A stretch of 64,000 nt of DNA from Ostreococcus lucimarinus (taxonomy: Eukaryota): the NCBI GenBank assembly GCA_000092065.1, contig CP000581.1, one strand, 5' to 3'. The position numbers were made by a program, and so were the translations under genes. Positions 15,154-64,000 of the stretch are shown piece after piece (the first letter of the stretch is position 1; each line of letters starts with the position of its first letter). The notes under the pieces were generated by a model. That model saw nothing but the letters and a program-made list of their open reading frames with translations, was not told the origin of the DNA and searched no databases.

Positions 15154-16611
15154 ATGCCGCCGGACGCAACGCGACTCGTATCGTCTCCCACGCCGCACGG
15201 CTGCCTCAACGTCGTCGTCCACGGCGCGCGAAACGTCAAAAGTTCGAGCGCGTTGCGCATCCTGCGACTGCTCTGCGTCGTCGAATGCGCGGGCGCGCGC
15301 TTCAAAACCCGCTCTAAACGCACGCGCGGCGCACCGGACTGGCACGCCGCGGGACGTTTGACGTTTTCGTCCGCGCGCGACGCGCTCGAGGACGACGTCG
15401 TGCGGGTGAGCGTGTGGGACAAGCGGCACGGGGGACACAAGTGCATGGGGAGCGCCGAGACGCCGCTGCGAGACGTGGCGCTCGATTCCGGACGCGAACA
15501 GTGCGTGATGCTGACTGGGGGGAAATTTGATGGAGCGTACGTAACGCTGACGATGTGGAGGAGCGCGGGTGAGGCGAACAAAGGCGGAGAGGCGGCGGTG
15601 GAGGAGCCGGGAGACGCGCGCGCGAGCGACGAGGAGACGACGGCGATCGAAACGACGGCGACGAAGGATGCGGATGAGGCGAGCGAGGATGCCGCGCGAG
15701 AGGTCGTGGAGACGTTTGAGAGTTTTACTGCGGATGAGAATGACGATGAGGAACAGGTTGTGGTGGAGTCAGAGTCGACGCGGGCGGAGGAAGTCGCGGA
15801 GGACGAGGACGAGGACGAGTGGAGCGCGGCGTTGCGGCCTTCGAAACGCGCGACGGAGGAGGAAGCCACGGAGATGGAACCGACGACGGCGGATGAAAGT
15901 GATGCGCACGTGCACGATGAGGCGATGCGTGCTAATGCGGTCGCGCGCGCGTCGGAGATCGCTGATATATGGGCTGAGGATTCGATGGATGACATCGTCG
16001 TGGTGTCGCCGCCGCCTCAGCCGCGCGACCGGCCGCTGGACGAGCGGAGTGACGCGAGGGCAAATCGCGACGGAGCCGCGGACGAGCGAGCTAAGGCAAT
16101 AAATGAACTTCACACCGTGCGTCACGTGGTTTCGCCCGCAAAGCCGGTGTCAGCTCTGAAAGACGCGGATGTCGAGGTGTGCAGACTCGAGTCGGCGTCT
16201 CCCGAGCGGCCAATGAAATCAGCCATAAAGACGCCTCCGATGGTTTCCCCGCGTCAGCCGAAACAAATAGAAAACGAAGACGATTTAGTAGCTGCGCTGC
16301 TATCGCCAGGTCGAATGAACGGTGCGCGTGTGACGTTTGATGAACGTTTGATGCGAACGCAACTGCCCACGCGAACCGCAGCATCGCCAAAGACACCAAC
16401 GGCGCCGAAGACCGTGGCGCACAAAGTACCGATCGCGAACGGCGCGCCGAGGACACCATCGAGCGCACATCGTGGTGTGTTTGCAAAGAAGCTATTCGCT
16501 GAACAAGTCAAGCCGTTTTCGATGCCGACGAAGGCAGAGATCGACGAGGCACGACAACTCGCGATGATGTACGAACGCGCGGAAGCAGTGTTCGCCAGTT
16601 GGACGTTTTAG
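15154..16611 (+). CDS. C2-domain-like protein with a long acidic C-terminal region
   Basis: The ORF runs from 15064, but the first normal-composition ATG is at 15154 (MPPDATRLV). The N-terminal ~120 aa fit a C2 beta-sandwich pattern: LNVVVHGARNV..RILRLLCVVECAGARFKTRSKRTRGAPDWHAAGRLTF..DDVVRVSVWDKRHGGHKCMGSAETPL. The downstream region is Glu/Asp-rich. Confidence 0.5.
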   Translation: MPPDATRLVSSPTPHGCLNVVVHGARNVKSSSALRILRLLCVVECAGARFKTRSKRTRGAPDWHAAGRLTFSSARDALEDDVVRVSVWDKRHGGHKCMGSAETPLRDVALDSGREQCVMLTGGKFDGAYVTLTMWRSAGEANKGGEAAVEEPGDARASDEETTAIETTATKDADEASEDAAREVVETFESFTADENDDEEQVVVESESTRAEEVAEDEDEDEWSAALRPSKRATEEEATEMEPTTADESDAHVHDEAMRANAVARASEIADIWAEDSMDDIVVVSPPPQPRDRPLDERSDARANRDGAADERAKAINELHTVRHVVSPAKPVSALKDADVEVCRLESASPERPMKSAIKTPPMVSPRQPKQIENEDDLVAALLSPGRMNGARVTFDERLMRTQLPTRTAASPKTPTAPKTVAHKVPIANGAPRTPSSAHRGVFAKKLFAEQVKPFSMPTKAEIDEARQLAMMYERAEAVFASWTF

Positions 16612-16658
16612 TAGCAGTGAAATTAATAGGGTATCTAGGTTCTAAGACAACATATCCA

Positions 16659-17462
16659 TTAGGTTCCGTGCGTTTTTTGGATTTGAACGACGTCCTCGTC
16701 CTCGAGCACGTGCTCCTTACCCACGCGTTGCGGACGATGCTTCACGCTCGTCCCCCACACCAAGGCGTGCTTGAACGTGCGAATAATCGTCTTGTGCAAC
16801 TTGTTACAGAAATCTTCAACCGTGCAATTCTTCTTGTGCAGAATGATTGGTTCGTCGAAGTTCGGCTGCGTACCTCGCGGCATCGTGTACACGCGAATCA
16901 AATCGAGATACTCCCAAACCTTCTCCAACAAACCGTCCAAGTTCCACTCTTTTTCAGAAGACGTCATGACGTAGTGCTTCATGTCATCCATGAGCTGCAA
17001 TTCTTCCAACGAAACGGAGTCCATCTTATTCACCGCGTACACCGCAGGGGTGTAGATGCGGTTACCCTCGATGACATCAATCAATTCCTCATCCGTGCAA
17101 TCCGCGAAGAGCTTGACGTCGGCGTTGTGAATCTTGTACTCGGCGCAAATGCTCTTCACCGTCTCTTCGTCCAAGAAGGTTGTCTTCCCGTTGGGGTTAG
17201 GCGTGAACGCGATCCCACCTTTTTCTTTCCTGTTAAAAGTGATCGCCGGCGGTTTCTTGTTCAAGCGTATGCCCACACCCTCCAATTCGTGTTCGATTAA
17301 TTTGCGGTGCGTAAACGGCTTCAACGCGTCGAGCACGATGATTATCACGTCGCACGTTCTCGCCGTGGAAATCACCTGTCGACCGCGACCTTTGTTATCC
17401 TTCGCGCCTTCGATGATACCGGGAAGATCGAGCAACTGAATGCGAGCGCCTCTGTATTTAAT
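16659..17462 (-). CDS. DRG: Developmentally regulated GTP-binding protein (DRG, Obg family), exon 2 of 2, including the stop codon
   Basis: [127 protein letters not shown] is collinear with human DRG1, including the C-terminal TGS domain. Confidence 0.9.
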
Positions 17463-52876: not shown

Positions 52877-54094
52877 ATGCGCCTCCGCGCCCCCGCGCCC
52901 TCGGTCGCGCCTCGTCCCGTCCCGAGCCGCGCGCGCGAGCGACGACGCGCGCCCTCCCGCGCGCGCGCGTCGTCGACCGCGCGAGACGACGCGCTGCGCG
53001 GTTGCACCGAGTGTTCGCTCCCGAACGAGCGCGCGCGCGCGGACGCCGTCGCGCGCGCGATGGCGCTCCCCGACACCGGACACGCGCGCGCGCTCGTCGT
53101 CGGCGTCGAGACTGGAATGCTCGCGCGAGCGCTGACGACGGACGACGGCGCGCGGTGCACGGTGCTGTGCGCGGACGCGTCGACGGCGATGCTCGAGCGC
53201 GGGGCGGAGACGGTGGGCGCGCCGCGGGCGCTGCGGGCGGGCGTGGACGTGTTAGGGAACGAGAGAGGGGCGCGATTCCTGCGCGCGGACGATGCGTTGA
53301 AAGAGTTGAAGCCGTACCACGGACCGTTCGATGCGGTGGCGTTTAACGCGCACCTGTGCGATCGAGGCGAGGCGAGGCGAACGGCGCTGACGCGAGCGAC
53401 GATGGCGCTCAAGCCGGGGGGACGGATGGTGATTTCTGAGCGTAAGGCGGGCGATGCCGAGGGCTCCGACGTCGATGGTGGGTTAGATTTCGCGGAAATC
53501 GTGCGCGATTTGCCGCTGGCGCGCGTGGACGCGAGTGGGTCGTGTTCGGGGAAGGATTTGAGCGCCGCGGCGACGGCGACGGCGATACGCGCGGACGACG
53601 ATGAGAATCCCTTGGTGCTCATGGTGCCTAAATTCTACGAGTTGGCGAATAGATTCACGCTCGAGGCGCCCGTGGTCACCGGGTTCGGTCGAGGGAGTAA
53701 ACAGATGGGGGTGCCGACGGCGAACTTGGACCCGGAGACGTGCGGCGGCGAGGCGGTTTTGAGCGCGCTTCCGCTCGGCGTGTATTTCGGTTGGGCCAAA
53801 CGCGAAGGCGAGTCAAACTGGCACGAGTGCGTGCTTAACGTCGGTAAGCGACCGACGTTTGTCGACGGCGACGGGACGACGATCGAGGTGCACGTCATGG
53901 GCGCGAGCGACGCGACGCCGGAGTACGAGGACGATTTTTACGGCGAAACCATGCGCGTCGACGTGTGCGGATTCATCCGTCCCGAGTTGCGATTCGATTC
54001 CTTGCCCGAACTCGTGGCGCGCATCAAGACCGATATCGGCCTCGCGCGTAACGCGTTGGCGTCGGGCGCGCACGCGCGACCGTCGTCTTCCTAG
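52877..54094 (+). CDS. RFK: Two-domain protein: N-terminal class I SAM-methyltransferase-like fold fused to a C-terminal riboflavin kinase (flavokinase) domain
   Basis: The C-terminal 150 aa are collinear with human RFK: GFGRGSKQMGVPTANL..GVYFGWA..NVGKRPTF..EVHVM..DFYGETMRVDVCGFIRPELRFDSLPELVARIKTDI. The N-terminal region, ALVVGVETGMLARAL..TVLCADASTAMLERG..FDAVAFNAHL..LKPGGRMVISE, has the motif I / post-I / motif II-III spacing of a Rossmann MTase. Confidence 0.75.
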   Translation: MRLRAPAPSVAPRPVPSRARERRRAPSRARASSTARDDALRGCTECSLPNERARADAVARAMALPDTGHARALVVGVETGMLARALTTDDGARCTVLCADASTAMLERGAETVGAPRALRAGVDVLGNERGARFLRADDALKELKPYHGPFDAVAFNAHLCDRGEARRTALTRATMALKPGGRMVISERKAGDAEGSDVDGGLDFAEIVRDLPLARVDASGSCSGKDLSAAATATAIRADDDENPLVLMVPKFYELANRFTLEAPVVTGFGRGSKQMGVPTANLDPETCGGEAVLSALPLGVYFGWAKREGESNWHECVLNVGKRPTFVDGDGTTIEVHVMGASDATPEYEDDFYGETMRVDVCGFIRPELRFDSLPELVARIKTDIGLARNALASGAHARPSSS

Positions 54095-55391: not shown

Positions 55392-56582
55392 ATGCGGGGC
55401 CGATTCGGCGCGGATTCGAGGGCGATGGCGATGGCGATGCGACGGGTGGAGTCCATGCCGGAGCTCGGCGAAGCGCGCGCGAGCGCGAGTCAAGAGACGG
55501 CGCGCGCGCTGAGATCGGCGAAAAATAGCGATGAGAGCACGGAGGATGCGTTCGCGATGGCGACGAGCGAGGCGGCGGGCGACGACGAAGACGCGAGGGC
55601 GGAGCGAGACGAAGCGACGAAGACGCGAGAGGCGACGGCGCGCGCGCGCGGCGACGAGACGACCGCGGACGAGCGCTGTTTTGTCGATCGAGAACCCACG
55701 GTGTTGATCGTGGATGATTGTTCGATGAATTTGCGCATCGTGAGCAGGGTGTTGGCGGCGATTTTTAGCGACGTACGCGTCGAGTTCGCGCACGACGGTC
55801 GGGAGGGTATCAAGCGGTACGAAGAGTTACGGAACGATGTGTCGTGTGATTTAGCGCTCATCATCGTGGATTATAACATGCCTTGGTGCGATGGGGTAAC
55901 GGCGTCCAAGTATGTGCGGGCGTTGGAGGAACGACACAACAGTCGCGCGCGCGAGCAATCCGACGTCGCCGCCCTTTGGCGGCGAGTGCCCATCGTGATG
56001 TACACAACCGAACTACACGTCATTCTGCCGGCTTTGGTAGATGGCACGATTGACGATCGGTTGCCAAAGGTGTGCACGCGAGAGATGTTTTCGAGATCAG
56101 TCGTGCGCCATCTCGCGCCTCGGCACGCTCGATGGGTGCTGCCAGAATGGCGCGGAATCGAGTCGAGGGCGGCTCGGTTTAGTTGCAACGACGTCGCCAA
56201 CGTGGAGTTGGAATTAGACATGCGCAGTCGCGCTTTCGTATCGTTCGACGATGCGATCCAAGGGAAGAGTGTGAAAAAGCGTCATCGTCAAAGAGACGAA
56301 GAACCGCCGGCAAACGGTGCCAAGTCGCTTCGAGGGCTCGACGGAGAGATTATCGTTTTAGGTTCGTCATCGGCGGAGGTGTCGAGCGATCACAACCGGG
56401 GGCTTCTGAAGCGTCTCTCGAGATCGTTTAATAAGTTGTTCAAGTCGAAAAGCTCCACGCCGACGGCGAGAGCGAAACTAAAAGAGGATAAACGCGCGGC
56501 GCTGTCGAAAAAATTTGAAACGACGGGTGCTTCCTCGTTGCATACATCCCTGGACAACGCTTTTCCTCGATATAGCATGTAG
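55392..56582 (+). CDS. Response-regulator receiver (REC, CheY-like) domain protein with no recognisable output domain
   Basis: TVLIVDDCSMNLRIVSRVL..VEFAHDGREGIKRY..CDLALIIVDYNMPWCDGVTASKYVRALE..PIVMYTT shows the acidic DD pocket, a phospho-acceptor Asp in the IIVDYNMP context, and T/K positions in receiver-domain order. The ORF begins at 54855 in a GC-repeat tract. The ATG at 55392 or 55425 is preferred. Confidence 0.6.
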   Translation: MRGRFGADSRAMAMAMRRVESMPELGEARASASQETARALRSAKNSDESTEDAFAMATSEAAGDDEDARAERDEATKTREATARARGDETTADERCFVDREPTVLIVDDCSMNLRIVSRVLAAIFSDVRVEFAHDGREGIKRYEELRNDVSCDLALIIVDYNMPWCDGVTASKYVRALEERHNSRAREQSDVAALWRRVPIVMYTTELHVILPALVDGTIDDRLPKVCTREMFSRSVVRHLAPRHARWVLPEWRGIESRAARFSCNDVANVELELDMRSRAFVSFDDAIQGKSVKKRHRQRDEEPPANGAKSLRGLDGEIIVLGSSSAEVSSDHNRGLLKRLSRSFNKLFKSKSSTPTARAKLKEDKRAALSKKFETTGASSLHTSLDNAFPRYSM

Positions 56583-56659: not shown

Positions 56660-59600
56660 TCAACGCAACAGTTTTCTCGGCAACAAGGTCTCGTCGATGA
56701 TGTCCTTCGGCACGTCCGAAGCCTTCCCAGAAAACGCGGCGTGTATAGCGGATATTTGCGTCGCTCTGACTTTCCGAGCAAGAATGGCTTCCTCTTTAAC
56801 GTCGTGCTCGCTCGCCAACGTGATTGCCTCGGTCGTGTCGTACGAGGATCGCTTGTCCGCCGCACTGGGAGATTTGGCGGCGACTCGTTGCGCAAAGACT
56901 TCGATTTGGCCGGGGAACCTTCGATGCACGTAATCGAGTTCAGCCGTAGATTTAAACCCAAGAACGCGCGTTTCGTCGACGGGAGGGAGGGTATCGGCCT
57001 TCGATTCTTCCTTGTTTGGCCAAATCCATGTGCCAAACGTCTCGCTCGTGCCCTGATCCGCGAGGATGGAGTTCACCTTGCGCTCGCGGTTCGATTCAAT
57101 CGTCACGTGACGCTTGTGACCGGCTCCGTCGTGCATGGCGCGCACCACTCTATTCTTGAACGGTTCGAGTCGATCGATTGTGTTTTCACTTTCTGGCGGT
57201 GCGGCTACGATGCCGAATCCCTCCTTGCCTTTGATGAGCCATCTGCCCGCCGACGCCGCTTCCGTGCGGTTGACGACATACGGGAAATTTGTCTGCGAAC
57301 GGTACGATGATCGCGCGCCGAACTCAGATAACATCCTCGCAATATTGAGTCGAGTACTGATGACGCTCTGATACCGCTTTTGCGACGCCTTGAACAAATC
57401 TTCCGCGGTACCCCACAAGTAGAGCACACTGCCGTGGTGCACACGCGCATCGACGGCTCTGGGTCCATCGATCGCTTGGAGGGAGATGGACGTGGGATCA
57501 GCGCCTTCCATGAGCATGTGCTTGACAATGTCTTCACAGCCGAGCTCTCTGGCTTCGGCTCGAATGGCCGCCGTGACCGCCCACATGAGTGGATAGCTTC
57601 GCATTCCGATTGATCTCTCCGGGTCGAGTACGAAGTTGTCGTTCAAAGTTTCGTCGAGCGCCGTCTTATCGCCTTGTTCGACGTATCGCTCGCGTAGCTC
57701 TTTGTACCTCCGCATCCGATGCGCTTTGAGCTGGTTTCGCGCATTCGAATACGCTTCCGGGGCGAGCACAGAATGCAAACCAATCTTATCGACGTTGGCG
57801 CCCTTGTTGATGCAAATCTTGGCGAGCGTTATGCCGACCGCCAGTTGCTCTTGCGACTTGGCTGTGGCGGCGCCGTACAGCGCGGCAAATAGAGGCGTGA
57901 ATTCGTAAGGAACCAAACCAACGCCATAACTCTCTAGTAAAGGGTTCCTGGCGAAGGCATCGATGTTATCAGCACTGCACTTCTCTAAAAGTTTGATCGC
58001 GACGGCCAAAGTGGTCTTTTGTCGGGAAGCGTGTCGGAGTTCAAGCTCTTCCCGCGTCAATGGACGAGCCGATTCCCACTCCGCTTCGATCAGCATCTGC
58101 TCTTCCCGGTCAGCTTCGCTCGGTGCACCGATTTTATCGACGTCATCATAGAGTTTGTCCATCTCTGTTTGATCAAATTCTTCAGGGAACTCGTCATCCG
58201 AAGGCCAGTAAGCGCTCCCCTCGTTCCTTGACTCGTATGATTCACCGCCAGAGGTGAGAAGAGTAGCAGTTTCTTCTTTAACCACCGCCGCGGATATGTT
58301 TTGTCTCACCTCCATGTTCATCCTGGACGAAATCATCGTCGTCGTTTCGATTCCACTCTTAGTCACTTTGACTTGTGAATCTGACCCCGTCGCGCTTTGT
58401 CGTTTTACACCGAAATTTTGCAAGCCTTTTGGAATTATCCCATGGACCATTCGATTGAGTTCGGTCTGTCTCTTTTCTTCTTCTTCGTTGATAGCCCAAT
58501 CTAGTTCTTTAGTGTCCGCAGCTTGGAGTTGCTCTTCAAGATCATCGTCTGTTTGCGGATCCGAGTCGTACACGTTCTTATCGACCGAACTCGACCACCA
58601 CGTACTTGACCGTACTTGACCACCACGTACGGTGTTGTTTGGATTGACGAATCGCTGTCGTATCTCGTGTGCTCTTCGTTCATTCTCTTTCCGGGTTATC
58701 TCAAGAGCCCTCGTCTCGAAAGACGTATGGCCGACGACCACTGTTCGCACGAGGCCTGGAATATCTCGGCGCGCGGCGATGCTTGCTGGTCCAAATCTTG
58801 AGCCTTTTGGACGAATCACGCCCTGCACCATGCTCATTTTAGGCACAATTTTCGTGGGTACAGCTTCAGTATCAGCATTGACGTCTTCAGGCGCCTCCTC
58901 GACCGTGTACACTCGTCCATCGTCTGGACGCTCGGGACGCAACGCGTCGAGCACGGTCCGTCGCCGCAACGCACTGATATCTATGTCGTCATTTACCCCA
59001 CCGAGAATACGCGCTTCATTTCTTTTGGTAACCTTTTCGTAGAAACTCGGTTCCTCCTCGCCCTGATCATATACTCGGGTACTCTGCCTTCTGAACGCCG
59101 CGTGCTCGAGGGCATTTGAAATGGTGTTGTCGAATTTGTCTTCCTCCGTTTCCTTTGTTTTTGGTTGTTCTTGATTGGCAGCTTGATTCAAACGAAGCAA
59201 AACTTCCCCAACGTTGAGCCTTTCGAAGTTTGTTTCGTCTTCTGGTGCTGGAAGCGGCGCCGCGGCTTCGACGGCCGCTGCGATAGCCATGGCCACGAGA
59301 TTGCCTTCAATCCATGAGTGGAAATTTTTGTGCATCATCCGCCGAACCATCGCGCCAGCATCGAGAAGGCGCACGACCAACTCCACGGCTTCTTTATGGC
59401 CTTCTTTGGCCGCGGCCTCGATGGCCCAGAACAAAGGTGGATATTGGCACTCGCCTGAACGATGAGGAAGCGCTGGGAAAGGCGCGCCGAAATCAAAGTT
59501 CTTCACAGAGCCAAACATGGACGATCTGACTGATGCATCATCGTCAGTATCGCCTGACTCTTTGATTTTCTTTAGTCTTGTCACCTCTTCGAATACTTTT

Positions 59601-62455
59601 CCGAAATCCAGAGAGCTCAGTTCGCCATCGCTCAGATCTTCGTGCTCGCCGGGGTGAGGCGGAACGAGCTCCATTGATGGCTGACGCACTCGATGTACAA
59701 TGGATGCGACTTGCGCATTTTCCTCGGCACGTGCGCAAAGAAGTGTACGTTCTGGCATCATAGCGAATGTTACCGCCGGTACCTGATGATTTGTAATCTT
59801 AATCGCCTCAATGTATGCCTCTGGAATTTTCTCGCTGTAAACTTCGATGCAACACAAATTTGGATCGGCGCCACGTTCGAGTACTTGTTTAATCAATCTA
59901 AGAATTCGCTGACGATCCGACTTGCCCGCACGCAAAGCGTGAATGAGCTGTATTAGTGTTGTTCCTTTACTTCCATCCGGAAAGAGTGCCTTCAGGTCCA
60001 CGGATACGTTATACTTTAAAAGCTTCTCAAAGGCTTCTTCGGCGCCATCAACGCCGTGATAAATCGCCATCGCGAGCGTAAAGAGAGGTGGTGCGGCGAT
60101 CGGATAAGGACCTAGACCTCGTGCATTGACGTCAATGTTGGTTTCTAGTAACATTTCGAAGAGCGGGTACGCCTCTTGCATGTCTCTTGCGATGTAACCG
60201 CTAACCATACACAGAGGCGTGGTTGTCGTTTCCGCGCACGTGTGTGCGAACTCGCGGTTGAGCGTCATGCGGACGTTCGGATTCGCGCCCCGCTTCAACA
60301 GTGATTTGGCAAGATCGAGACAGTCGAGTCTCGCCTGCGTCGGTCTGTTGAAGACAACGGCCTTCTCTTCTTCTTCTCCCTGAGCTAGCGCCAATGCTGT
60401 TGTGACATCGCCGATGGCTTTTTCCGAGCTGTCAATGAGAGAAAATGTCACGTTTTTCGCCGTTTCAACAAGCAGCTCGAATCTGCCTAGACGAGCCGCT
60501 CGCGCTTTCGCACGTATTCGTTTCAACTCTTCCGGATCTTCATGGTCCAAGAACACCCCCGACTTGGATTTCATCATGTACTCTGTAAAGCCAACGACGA
60601 AGGTATTCCCATCCTCGTCTGTGTATTGCGTCGCCCCTTTTGCAGCAAGCGTCTCCTCATTATCTCCCTCAGGCTCAGATTCGGATACTTGTTGCTGCTC
60701 TTCGATAACGCTATTTTGTTGCGCTTTCTCCGCCTGTGCGATTGCGGCGGCAATTCTAGCGGCTTTTCTATCGCGCTCCGCCTCGGCGGCAATTTCCTCA
60801 TCCGTCATGATCATTTCTTTTTTCCTCTCCGTTTCAAATTCCTCGCGCCGCGCCACGGCACCTCGACCATCAAACGCGGCATCGTTAATATCAGGTATAT
60901 ATTCATCCAGTGCACTCAAATCTTCGGCGTCAACGGCCGAAAGTGCCCGCCACGACCCTTCGCCTTTGGACAACTGCGAGCCTAAAACACTTCCCATGTC
61001 TGAGACGTTCGCTTTCACGGCGGCTGATTCCCACCAAGTTCTCGTTTCTATGAAACCGAGACTATTGAACGAACACGGTGCATCTATGGCGTCTATCACC
61101 ATGGCAAGCAAAGGTAATTTTCGGCCGTGATGCGATCGGGCGCCGACGTAGTCGTCGGTGATTTTATCCAACTTTTCTAAAAGCAAATCCATCAGTGCAA
61201 TCGCGACTGTACCTACTCCTTCCGCGATGGCGCACGCTAAAATGAAAATCGCTGGCCCTCGCATTAGCGTGTGTATCTCTACCGGCGCTATACGGCGATC
61301 TGCCAATTCCTCCACGCTGAGCCGGTGCGTGAAGGTTGAATCTATGTTCAGCTTGACGTCATCGCAACCTTGTATTATCAGCCCCGCAAGCTTCGCTATC
61401 CGACATTTTCGCTCGTACTCCATCTCGTACGGAATGCTAGACTCGAGCGCAGCGCAACACACATTTAGTGGAGTGAGAAATTTTCCACAGCACGCATGCC
61501 TACCTGGTCGCTCGCACTCGGCATTTGCGCTCGCGCCTCGACTAGTCAATCGAGCCGCCAGAGACAGCACGTCGTCTCCGGCGCCCGAGATGATGGCCAG
61601 CGCACAAAAGAACAGAGGTGAGCCATATGTGCCCGGGACCCCGGCGTAGGGCGCGATGCGGTTATCTGCGATCGCACCCGTCTCCGGCTGTATTTTGTAC
61701 ATGCCGTTCGCGCTCGCGCCCGCGGCGAGCATCGCCGTCGCGAATTCCACAATCGCCCCTGAACTTTGAGCGAACGAATCTCCTCGCTCACCCACGCTCT
61801 TACGAATCGCCGCCACTTTCTCTGCGTAGAGCGCACCCTCCTCGTCAGCCTCCTCTAACGCCCGTTCGTGATGCTTGTCTCTCGTCATCTCCCGCGCGTC
61901 TCGCGTTCTCCGCTCGCTCGGCGTCAGCATCCTCGACTCCAACATCGAGCACAACAGCGCGAGCGGCGAGATCCCTTTCCCATGGTTCATTCGATTCCCC
62001 ACCGCATCTAAATCGCACTCAAACTGCACCAACGATTCGAACAATGGTCGCACTTCGCTCGCGCTCGCGCCCTCCACCATCGCGCACGTCAACAACCACG
62101 TCGCCCTTCCGCTCGTCCCATCGCTCATCACTTCGTTCTCCTCCAGCGCGGCCGCGTCCACGCCACCGTCCGCCATCGCATCCGTCTCGTGCTCCGCTTG
62201 TTGGATCGCCAACCGCACGCGCGCGAGCTTTTCGTTGCGCTTGTGTTCGGCGAGTTTGCTCGCGACGTGGACGCGCTCGGCGACCGCGCGCGCGACGCTG
62301 TCCGACGTCGTCTCGGCCGTGGAGCTCGCCCAGGCGGGGAAGGACGCGGACGTCGATCCATTCGAGCGATGACGGCGCGCCGACGACGCGTCGCTCGCGC
62401 GCGGCGGCGCGGACATCGCGCGCGCCGGGCTCTGCCGCGCGTTTAGTGTTACCAC
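56660..62455 (-). CDS. Giant (1931 aa) uncharacterised protein with degenerate ankyrin-like repeat modules and acidic/coiled-coil segments
   Basis: Single uninterrupted 5.8-kb ORF in a high-GC genome. There are recurrent ANK-like helical-hairpin modules: PLFFCALAIISGAGDDVLSLAARLTSRGASANA; TPLCMVSGYIAR..LFEMLLETNIDVNARG; PPLFWAIEAAAKEGHKEAVELVVRLLDAGAMV; TPLFAALYGAATAKSQEQLAVGITLAKICINKGANVDK; YPLMWAVTAAIRAEARELGCEDIVKHMLMEGADPT. I see no catalytic motif. An alternative start is the ATG at 62416. Confidence 0.8.
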   Translation of the reverse strand: MVTLNARQSPARAMSAPPRASDASSARRHRSNGSTSASFPAWASSTAETTSDSVARAVAERVHVASKLAEHKRNEKLARVRLAIQQAEHETDAMADGGVDAAALEENEVMSDGTSGRATWLLTCAMVEGASASEVRPLFESLVQFECDLDAVGNRMNHGKGISPLALLCSMLESRMLTPSERRTRDAREMTRDKHHERALEEADEEGALYAEKVAAIRKSVGERGDSFAQSSGAIVEFATAMLAAGASANGMYKIQPETGAIADNRIAPYAGVPGTYGSPLFFCALAIISGAGDDVLSLAARLTSRGASANAECERPGRHACCGKFLTPLNVCCAALESSIPYEMEYERKCRIAKLAGLIIQGCDDVKLNIDSTFTHRLSVEELADRRIAPVEIHTLMRGPAIFILACAIAEGVGTVAIALMDLLLEKLDKITDDYVGARSHHGRKLPLLAMVIDAIDAPCSFNSLGFIETRTWWESAAVKANVSDMGSVLGSQLSKGEGSWRALSAVDAEDLSALDEYIPDINDAAFDGRGAVARREEFETERKKEMIMTDEEIAAEAERDRKAARIAAAIAQAEKAQQNSVIEEQQQVSESEPEGDNEETLAAKGATQYTDEDGNTFVVGFTEYMMKSKSGVFLDHEDPEELKRIRAKARAARLGRFELLVETAKNVTFSLIDSSEKAIGDVTTALALAQGEEEEKAVVFNRPTQARLDCLDLAKSLLKRGANPNVRMTLNREFAHTCAETTTTPLCMVSGYIARDMQEAYPLFEMLLETNIDVNARGLGPYPIAAPPLFTLAMAIYHGVDGAEEAFEKLLKYNVSVDLKALFPDGSKGTTLIQLIHALRAGKSDRQRILRLIKQVLERGADPNLCCIEVYSEKIPEAYIEAIKITNHQVPAVTFAMMPERTLLCARAEENAQVASIVHRVRQPSMELVPPHPGEHEDLSDGELSSLDFGKVFEEVTRLKKIKESGDTDDDASVRSSMFGSVKNFDFGAPFPALPHRSGECQYPPLFWAIEAAAKEGHKEAVELVVRLLDAGAMVRRMMHKNFHSWIEGNLVAMAIAAAVEAAAPLPAPEDETNFERLNVGEVLLRLNQAANQEQPKTKETEEDKFDNTISNALEHAAFRRQSTRVYDQGEEEPSFYEKVTKRNEARILGGVNDDIDISALRRRTVLDALRPERPDDGRVYTVEEAPEDVNADTEAVPTKIVPKMSMVQGVIRPKGSRFGPASIAARRDIPGLVRTVVVGHTSFETRALEITRKENERRAHEIRQRFVNPNNTVRGGQVRSSTWWSSSVDKNVYDSDPQTDDDLEEQLQAADTKELDWAINEEEEKRQTELNRMVHGIIPKGLQNFGVKRQSATGSDSQVKVTKSGIETTTMISSRMNMEVRQNISAAVVKEETATLLTSGGESYESRNEGSAYWPSDDEFPEEFDQTEMDKLYDDVDKIGAPSEADREEQMLIEAEWESARPLTREELELRHASRQKTTLAVAIKLLEKCSADNIDAFARNPLLESYGVGLVPYEFTPLFAALYGAATAKSQEQLAVGITLAKICINKGANVDKIGLHSVLAPEAYSNARNQLKAHRMRRYKELRERYVEQGDKTALDETLNDNFVLDPERSIGMRSYPLMWAVTAAIRAEARELGCEDIVKHMLMEGADPTSISLQAIDGPRAVDARVHHGSVLYLWGTAEDLFKASQKRYQSVISTRLNIARMLSEFGARSSYRSQTNFPYVVNRTEAASAGRWLIKGKEGFGIVAAPPESENTIDRLEPFKNRVVRAMHDGAGHKRHVTIESNRERKVNSILADQGTSETFGTWIWPNKEESKADTLPPVDETRVLGFKSTAELDYVHRRFPGQIEVFAQRVAAKSPSAADKRSSYDTTEAITLASEHDVKEEAILARKVRATQISAIHAAFSGKASDVPKDIIDETLLPRKLLR

Positions 62456-62559
62456 GACGCGACGTAGAGTGCGCGGGTTTTAGTCCATGTTCGAGGCGCG
62501 GTGTGCGTTCGGTAATCGGACATTCGGTGTATGCGTTTTTAGTTTGAGTATTAAAAGAA

Positions 62560-64000
62560 ATGACATCGGCGCCGCGTTTGAAAATTCGCGTCTGTCGCGC
62601 CGCGCCATCGCCCGACGCGCGCGCGACGGTGATGGCGCTCGCGCGCGAGCGTCACGGTGACTCGAGCGATGAGGACGCGTCGCCGAGCGCGAAGCGCGCC
62701 AAGGCGAGCGATGCGCGCTACGACGCGCGTGGGTACGTCCCGGGGGCGCTCATGCGGGTCACGATGCACAACTTCATGACGCATAAACACGCGACGTTCG
62801 AGCCTGGGCCGCGGTTGAACGTCGTGCTGGGACCGAATGGGACTGGGAAGAGCGCGTTCGTGTGCGCGGTGTGCGTTGGACTCGGTGGATCGCCGAAATT
62901 GCTCGGTAGAGCGGGATCGCTTGGAGATTTCGTCAAGCGCGGCGAGGAGAGCGCGTACACGGAGATCACGCTGCGGGGACGCGACGCGGCGAAACCGATC
63001 ATCATTCGACGAGATTTCAATAATCGCGCCGGTGGGGCGTCGACGTGGAAACTGAATGGGGAAACGGTGAAGCATGAACGAATTCAACAAGAGATGAAGG
63101 CGTTGCACATGCAGTTGGACAATTTGTGCTCCTTCTTGCCGCAAGACAGAGTGGTGGCGTTTTCGATGCTCAATCCGCAGGAGTTGCTGTTAGAGACGGA
63201 GAAGGCGATCGGAAACGCAGAGATGTACGAACAGCACGAAAAGTTGAAGAAGATGAAGGATGGGATTTTAGATTTAGAGCGGTCGGTGGATCAAAAGACG
63301 ATGCGCTTGGACAAGCTCGGGCGAGACAACGAAAAGTTAGAACGCGACGTCGAACGGCTTCAAACGCGTGAGAAATTACTCGACCAGGCCAAAGATATGT
63401 CTACTAAGATTCCTTGGCTACTTTATGATCGATGCGCGGTGGAGAGGCAGCAGATTATGGCGGCGTACAAGGCGGCAAAGGAAAAGGTGCAACAAGCCAA
63501 ACTCGAGCACGCAGAGAAACTTAAGGAATATCATGAGCTAGAAACGCCGTACAACGCCATGGTGGATAAGATTAAGGAAGGTCGTGACAATTACAAGGAT
63601 ACGAAGAGCACGCTGTCGAAGATGGATGCAAAATTTAACAAACTCGCGGGCAAGCACGACGCGCTGACTCGATCTCTGAAAAAGGCGCGCGACGAAGCCA
63701 ACTCTGCTAAGAAGAAGTTACAGAAGCGCGAGGATACGATCGCTCTGCTCAAGGCACAACTTAATGATGTGCCCGAAGTGCCTAGGGATATTGATCAACA
63801 ACGAGCGGAGTTGAGAACTCGCACGCAAGCGGTTCATAACGAAGTCAGAGGCACCGACGAGGCGCTTCGTAAGGCGCAACTTGAAAAGCGCCCGCTCGAT
63901 GACGAATTCCAACGTTTGAAGCGACAACACAATGCGCTCGAATCCGTGCGCGAGCAAAAGATCATGAGATTGTCGCAGCATCGCAATTTTGGTCGCATCA
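62560..64000 (+). CDS. SMC5: Structural maintenance of chromosomes protein 5 (SMC5), N-terminal part; continues beyond the window end
   Basis: My own translation from the ATG at 62560 is open to position 64000: ..YVPGALMRVTMHNFMTHKHATFEPGPRLNVVLGPNGTGKSAFVCAVCVGLGGSPKLLGRAGSLGDFVKRGEESAYTEITL..LCSFLPQDRVVAFSMLNPQELLLETEKAIG.. followed by a long coiled coil. This matches human SMC5: [90 protein letters not shown]. It is absent from the ORF track because no stop lies in the window. Confidence 0.85.
   Translation, partial: MTSAPRLKIRVCRAAPSPDARATVMALARERHGDSSDEDASPSAKRAKASDARYDARGYVPGALMRVTMHNFMTHKHATFEPGPRLNVVLGPNGTGKSAFVCAVCVGLGGSPKLLGRAGSLGDFVKRGEESAYTEITLRGRDAAKPIIIRRDFNNRAGGASTWKLNGETVKHERIQQEMKALHMQLDNLCSFLPQDRVVAFSMLNPQELLLETEKAIGNAEMYEQHEKLKKMKDGILDLERSVDQKTMRLDKLGRDNEKLERDVERLQTREKLLDQAKDMSTKIPWLLYDRCAVERQQIMAAYKAAKEKVQQAKLEHAEKLKEYHELETPYNAMVDKIKEGRDNYKDTKSTLSKMDAKFNKLAGKHDALTRSLKKARDEANSAKKKLQKREDTIALLKAQLNDVPEVPRDIDQQRAELRTRTQAVHNEVRGTDEALRKAQLEKRPLDDEFQRLKRQHNALESVREQKIMRLSQHRNFGRI

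Follow-up and report, generated by a model that had tools for sequence, protein, structure and literature searches.

The DNA considered here is a stretch of 64,000 nucleotides from contig CP000581.1 of the marine green alga Ostreococcus lucimarinus, a Mamiellales picoalga (assembly GCA_000092065.1), called the window below. On its minus strand, at 56660-62416, lies the gene for a giant protein of 1918 amino acid residues (aa), annotated in public databases but uncharacterised. It belongs to the ankyrin-repeat superfamily, as a degenerate, long-loop variant. Its ankyrin (ANK) modules fall into four separate blocks, with long charged linkers between them. The domain content suggests that the giant protein is a non-enzymatic multivalent scaffold or adaptor, a reading to which we assign a probability of about 0.6.

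A single intronless gene and its family

The coding model at the locus is as follows.

56660-62455, minus strand: long open reading frame (ORF), 1931 codons counted from a GTG start (ORF listing and translation)
56660-62416, minus strand: complete single-exon coding sequence, 1918 codons plus a stop at 56660-56662 (GenBank match, collinear orthologues, dN/dS)

A first-pass annotation, made from the sequence alone, had described an intronless product of 1931 aa. The single exon stands; the length does not, as that count starts at the upstream GTG and the first ATG, at 62416, yields 1918 aa. The 1918-aa product is exactly the sequence of XP_001416023.1 (ABO94315.1, UniRef100_A4RS59), a "predicted protein" of Ostreococcus lucimarinus CCE9901, and the public model, with its single exon, agrees with the ORF. 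A literature search by the accessions of the protein found no citing paper.

The frame had also been called uninterrupted, too long to be a chance ORF, and the largest gene in the window, and each statement holds. The probability of meeting no stop over 1931 codons is about 1e-27 with the base composition of the window and about 1e-37 with the local composition, and the runner-up ORF in the window is 1279 aa long. The GC-rich setting invoked at the time is true of the window (60% GC) but not of the local region (51-55%; 0.55 for the gene overall). GC content at third codon positions (GC3) forms a gradient along the gene (56663-62416, minus strand), being 0.82 in codons 1-200, 0.47-0.57 in the middle and 0.61-0.67 in the last ~500 codons. 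Low GC3 (0.61-0.63) is also seen in other long ORFs of the window.

Relatives were sought on a large scale. A search of 5.8 billion proteins gave nine full-length clusters of 1832-1952 aa, with 51-93% identity to the giant protein, and one distant collinear relative, P0010 (2303 aa, 27% identity). An exhaustive HMMER scan of 1.84 billion representatives, with a profile built on aa 691-1760, brought in two further full-length members that are also distant, P0081 (2175 aa) and P0082 (2132 aa), and many fragments, all assignable either to the Ostreococcus-type clade or to the distant clade. Beyond family members and fragments, that scan yielded only generic ANK proteins, as a weak tail. Querying the 5.8 billion proteins a second time, in a word-indexed search with a family profile, gave no additional members, and a scan of viral contigs found no relative, hence no sign of a prasinovirus or giant-virus link. 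The family is confined to Ostreococcus-type genomes and one distant sister clade, the latter taken to be other picoalgae. GC content at the sister-clade locus is 55-70%.

Comparison with the 93%-identical relative gives a ratio of nonsynonymous to synonymous substitution rates (dN/dS) of 0.30 overall. The repeat blocks have 0.11-0.23 and the central linker has 0.55, and the value is below 1 in each segment. Selection is purifying, and it is strongest on the ankyrin blocks.

These data bear on whether the frame might be an artefact: an ORF that arose by chance, a pseudogene, or a run of separate genes mistaken for one. We give this practically no weight. The stop-free run (P <=1e-27), full-length collinear orthologues down to 25-28% identity, dN/dS below 1 throughout and the identical GenBank model all speak against it, and nothing specific was found on its side; GC-rich genomes can yield long spurious ORFs, and the opposite strand at this locus carries several overlapping ORFs of 160-310 aa. 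The gene is in two pieces only in L010, the locus of the 93%-identical relative. Because the neighbouring gene, SMC5, is likewise split into two ORFs on the same contig, the split points to sequencing or assembly frameshifts. The gene is real, single and intronless, and nothing favours several genes or a pseudogene.

Ankyrin-type blocks and the segments between them

About 10 modules are clear and about 6 others are partial or split; together they form four clusters. At least five divergent ANK-like modules had been proposed in the first-pass annotation; their ANK nature is upheld, and the number proves an undercount. Ten modules, 34-45 residues long, share the pattern xx(T/P)PL(F/L/M)x(A/L)(A/C)xA...G...LxxxLLxxGA(D/N)xN. 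With respect to the canonical 33-residue period, (T/P)PL and GA(D/N)xN are kept, whereas the His of TPLH gives way to F, L, M or C and the loops are extended.

The Pfam Ank hidden Markov model (HMM; PF00023) matches the whole protein at 30.4 bits, against a gathering cutoff of 21.1 (E 4.2e-7). Block by block, the score is 25.1 bits for B and a sub-threshold 17.6 bits for E, and A and C give no match. Among the relatives, P0001-P0009 carry a precomputed match and P0082 scores 22.6 bits; P0010 and P0081 are below the cutoff. Most modules of the giant protein are thus too degenerate for the superfamily HMM: inter-helix loops are longer, β-hairpins are long, the canonical His is missing, and helical insertions interrupt some modules.

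Two AlphaFold2 models (aa 36-700, with a predicted template modelling score of 0.66, and aa 691-1760) display a solenoid of stacked helix-turn-helix units with β-hairpins. A Foldseek comparison with the PDB ranks ankyrin proteins first, but none at E<=0.001. In the HMMER search, the weak tail is made up of canonical ANK proteins, which match the Block B part of the profile. The models thus predict an ankyrin fold for the blocks, including Block A, which escapes the Pfam HMM.

Profile-profile comparison (hhalign) pairs A with B at 95.6% (E 1e-8 over 140 columns, hairpin loops included), C with E at 89.9% and A with C at 52%, and every block-versus-linker control is <=1%. These links among the blocks indicate that the protein expanded by internal duplication of multi-repeat units, by which the blocks arose in part.

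The layout below was built from conservation profiles, the two AlphaFold2 models, with their per-residue confidence (pLDDT), and composition.

62147-62416, minus strand: N-terminus, aa 1-90, variable, Ser/Ala/Arg-rich and poorly conserved, then a long predicted helix at aa 41-80
60977-62146, minus strand: Block A, aa 91-480, about 6 ankyrin-like modules with long β-hairpin loops
60347-60976, minus strand: Linker 1, aa 481-690, acidic/charged, mostly modelled with low confidence
59807-60346, minus strand: Block B, aa 691-870, an N-terminal half repeat and 3 full ankyrin modules, pLDDT 80-93
aa 871-960: acidic spacer
59177-59536, minus strand: Block C, aa 961-1080, 1-2 ankyrin-like modules (YPPLFWAIEAAAKEGHKEAVELVVRLLDAGA...)
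58097-59176, minus strand: central linker, aa 1081-1440, highly charged/acidic, pLDDT <50, least conserved
57197-58096, minus strand: Block E, aa 1441-1740, about 3-4 ankyrin-like modules and a helical insertion, AlphaFold2 pLDDT 70-88
56663-57196, minus strand: C-terminal tail, aa 1741-1918, weakly conserved, with a few invariant residues; the model ends at aa 1760

Block B is the nearest of all blocks to the canonical ankyrin repeat. In Block A, module 2 is interrupted by a helical hairpin insertion of ~55 aa. Block C has the lowest dN/dS (0.11). Conservation with the distant clade is highest in Block E, which gives the best high-scoring segment pair to P0010 and contains the top Pfam Ank stretch of the protein (aa 1609-1642). 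Linker 1 has long predicted helices at aa 539-574 and aa 628-675 and a conserved hairpin, GATQYTDEDGxTFVVGFT. A composition scan of the central linker found up to 38% Asp plus Glu per 40 aa, in agreement with the acidic, highly charged central segment described earlier; as for the putative coiled-coil stretches also named there, long helices are predicted in the protein. The four ANK blocks probably form the functional core, because the residues invariant across both clades lie nearly all inside them.

Besides the hairpin of Linker 1, two short segments outside the blocks are also conserved. An island in the central linker at aa 1198-1232 (~58721-58825), GVLRPEGSRFGPxxxAARRDIPGLVRTVxVGHTS (GVLRPEGSRFGP..RRDIPGLVRTV), is strongly conserved in the Ostreococcus-type clade only; in the distant clade just a G(A/S)SRF core remains, in a basic context. 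It may be a candidate short docking or modification motif. At the extreme C-terminus (56663-56690) is a short basic-Leu-Leu motif with an invariant proline. The protein of the window ends in ...LLPRKLLR and those of the distant clade in ...RRPMRRLLT and ...RRPVRRLLT, so the motif is kept despite the poor conservation of the tail and ~300 extra residues in the distant clade.

Searches for other domains were negative. Pfam scans at E<=10 (whole protein; linkers and tail separately), NCBIfam and PDB sequence searches returned no enzymatic or nucleic-acid-binding domain, which agrees with the earlier failure to recognise an enzymatic or DNA-binding domain. BRCT, SAM, PARP, KH, ZU5 and SOCS domains were missing from all of these, per-segment Pfam scans included. 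TPR and LRR had no Pfam match even at E<=10, the Pfam scans gave no UPA, death or spectrin-binding domain, and composition revealed no transmembrane-like segment. NCBIfam gave no match to the giant protein at all, and the central linker contains no Pfam domain. The PDB sequence search, run with the single protein and two family profiles, returned designed ankyrin-like proteins only, and the N-terminal profile matched nothing. One of the designed proteins, the loop protein RBL4 (PDB 8fre), has E 3.4e-16 to the giant protein. This score is made by one natural module (aa 815-855) against four near-identical designed repeats, at ~15 bits each. RBL4 is artificial, and the match carries no evolutionary or functional meaning; it is convergence on a consensus of ANK type in which the inter-helix loop is longer, no more.

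Two other candidate features were rejected. Zinc binding by the Cys and His residues of a hairpin loop (RPGRHACCG) is not supported, as P0081 and P0082 do not keep the cysteines. The Ser/Ala/Arg-rich N-terminus does not behave as an organelle transit peptide: orthologue N-termini have early acidic residues and run straight into the long helix. In sum, the Pfam search and structure prediction proposed in the first-pass annotation, together with the other independent lines above, identify the modules as ankyrin repeats and assign the protein to no characterised large-protein family, and the overall interpretation given there is borne out.

The scaffold reading and its alternatives

In the proposed scaffold, the four ankyrin solenoid blocks (~6, 4, 2 and 4 modules) would be protein-binding surfaces, each offering a concave groove and extended β-hairpin "fingers" to partner proteins. 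The linkers, long, acidic/charged and predicted to be largely disordered, would keep the blocks joined, and short docking motifs may lie within them. Such a protein would gather several partners or hold a complex in place. Our ground for the scaffold function is what ankyrin domains generally do; for the flexible behaviour of the linkers it is low pLDDT and composition. Several considerations weigh against it. It is inferred by default from domain content; no confident model covers the linkers and tail, about 45% of the protein, where a novel domain or activity could lie hidden; and the alignments supplied to AlphaFold2 were shallow (10 sequences).

The architecture most closely resembles the multi-cluster ANK scaffolds (the ankyrin-repeat clusters, or ARCs, of tankyrase; MASK/ANKHD1), minus their defining extra domains. 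In tankyrase, five ARCs are joined by short helices, whereas the linkers of the giant protein are predicted to be disordered and extend over hundreds of residues; the SAM and PARP domains of tankyrase were not found by Pfam, and there is no specific sequence similarity. MASK/ANKHD1/ANKRD17 proteins, ~2000-2600 aa long, act as scaffolds; their ANK repeats form more than one cluster, and long parts of them are disordered. The giant protein is like them in size, in having more than one cluster and in its long regions of predicted disorder. They differ in having a KH domain and two large clusters, against no KH match and four small clusters here, and the exhaustive HMMER scan detected no homology to them beyond the generic ANK fold.

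Some of the alternative roles involve the gene next door, as follows.

62417-62559: divergent intergenic spacer common to the giant gene and SMC5, 143 bp
62560-64000, plus strand: SMC5, 5' part, head-to-head neighbour running off the window (Pfam AAA_23/SMC_N)

The identity of SMC5, with its ATG at 62560, is secured by E 1.6e-53 to solved SMC5 chains. The head-to-head placement was correctly noted in the first-pass annotation; the distance between start codons, put there at about 100 bp, is 143 bp. The arrangement is kept in Ostreococcus-type relatives whose giant proteins are 51-58% and 93% identical. In the distant clade, the upstream gene at all three loci is an unrelated 760-aa ORF, not SMC5. 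A crude ORF map of the window gives a median divergent gap of ~150 bp, and intergenic regions <200 bp are typical of Ostreococcus (PMC2850359). Alignment of the spacer at three Ostreococcus-type loci displayed no conserved block, the spacer is not alignable between Ostreococcus clades, and no canonical E2F site was seen in it by eye. The adjacency to SMC5 is weak evidence of a functional link, because it is absent in the distant clade, the gap is of typical size and the spacer cannot be aligned.

An SMC5/6-linked chromatin adaptor, co-expressed with SMC5 from a shared divergent promoter and helping to localise or regulate SMC5/6, has that conserved neighbourhood in its favour, persisting at only 51-58% protein identity, and a precedent in vertebrate SLF1, an ANK protein that recruits SMC5/6 and whose ankyrin domain reads nascent histone H4 (PMC11551741). 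SLF1 carries a tandem BRCT at its N-terminus and also an Nse5-like domain; its ankyrin-repeat domain (ARD) closely resembles those of TONSL and BARD1 (PMC11551741). By contrast, the tie of the giant protein to SMC5/6 is genomic adjacency only. It lacks high similarity to these ARDs and an Nse5-like domain, and neither tandem BRCT (SLF1, BARD1) nor TPR/LRR (TONSL) was found in it by Pfam at E<=10. We hold such a role to be improbable. Slightly less credence still goes to the fuller proposal that the giant protein is a lineage-specific SMC5/6 partner in Ostreococcus, co-transcribed from the 143-bp promoter, an independently evolved analogue of SLF1 whose blocks would read chromatin or repair proteins.

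Ankyrin blocks might instead select substrates, the giant protein being a regulatory or targeting subunit of a phosphatase (cf. MYPT1 for PP1, ANKRD28/44/52 for PP6) or of a ubiquitin ligase. This is unlikely, if less so than the SMC5/6 roles. MYPT-type PP1 regulators have a conserved RVxF just N-terminal to ANK, whereas the sole RVxF-like motif here, KNVTF (aa 654-658), was rejected as a PP1 site: neither K nor V is constant in the orthologues, and a helix is predicted at this position. A classical ankyrin-type membrane-cytoskeleton or organelle tether would suit the large size and ANK-richness of the giant protein, and the expanded ANK families of Bathycoccus have prompted similar speculation (PMC3491373). 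Yet the protein is without ZU5, UPA, death and spectrin-binding domains and has no transmembrane-like segment. In the canonical ankyrins ANK1-3, 24 contiguous repeats precede ZU5-UPA-death; here the repeats form four short, separated clusters of <=6 modules each. A tether is therefore very unlikely, with barely better prospects than the SMC5/6 adaptor.

Other neighbours and the value of the domain map

Downstream, the convergent neighbour of the giant gene (55431-56582, plus strand) encodes 383 aa, in which a response-regulator receiver domain is weakly matched (31 bits). Only 77 bp separate its stop from that of the giant gene, so the 3' ends must abut or overlap. It is kept in the Ostreococcus-type loci L001, L005, L007 and L010; the distant-clade gene at the same position is not homologous.

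The sole neighbour of the giant gene common to both clades is a methyltransferase-riboflavin kinase fusion, at 52877-54094 (plus strand) in the window and at 17406-18518 in L002, 16429-17763 in L008 and 16601-18004 in L009. It lies 2-4 kb downstream in the distant clade, and the two clades have it in opposite orientations with respect to the giant gene. In L010, an ORF with a Tc3-type transposase helix-turn-helix (16303-16836), not present in the window, sits between the response-regulator and flavokinase genes. Just past SMC5 in L005 (3319-4395) and L010 (2432-3417) is a divergent pair of 103-aa histone-fold genes with Pfam CENP-T_C matches, possibly core histones; the window ends short of the equivalent region.

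Ostreococcus genomes have ~55-75 ankyrin-repeat genes each (PMC3491373, PMC4815162), so one large uncharacterised member is unsurprising, and no long-standing question is opened or settled by it. The protein is an example of ankyrin repeats that have drifted past the reach of sequence HMMs with the fold, as predicted, retained. What is gained is a domain map of a conserved "predicted protein" in a model picoalga: four blocks, their internal duplication, linkers predicted to be disordered, and the limits of the family. Homologous recombination works in Ostreococcus tauri, and the map makes the gene tractable for tagging or knockout in that species.
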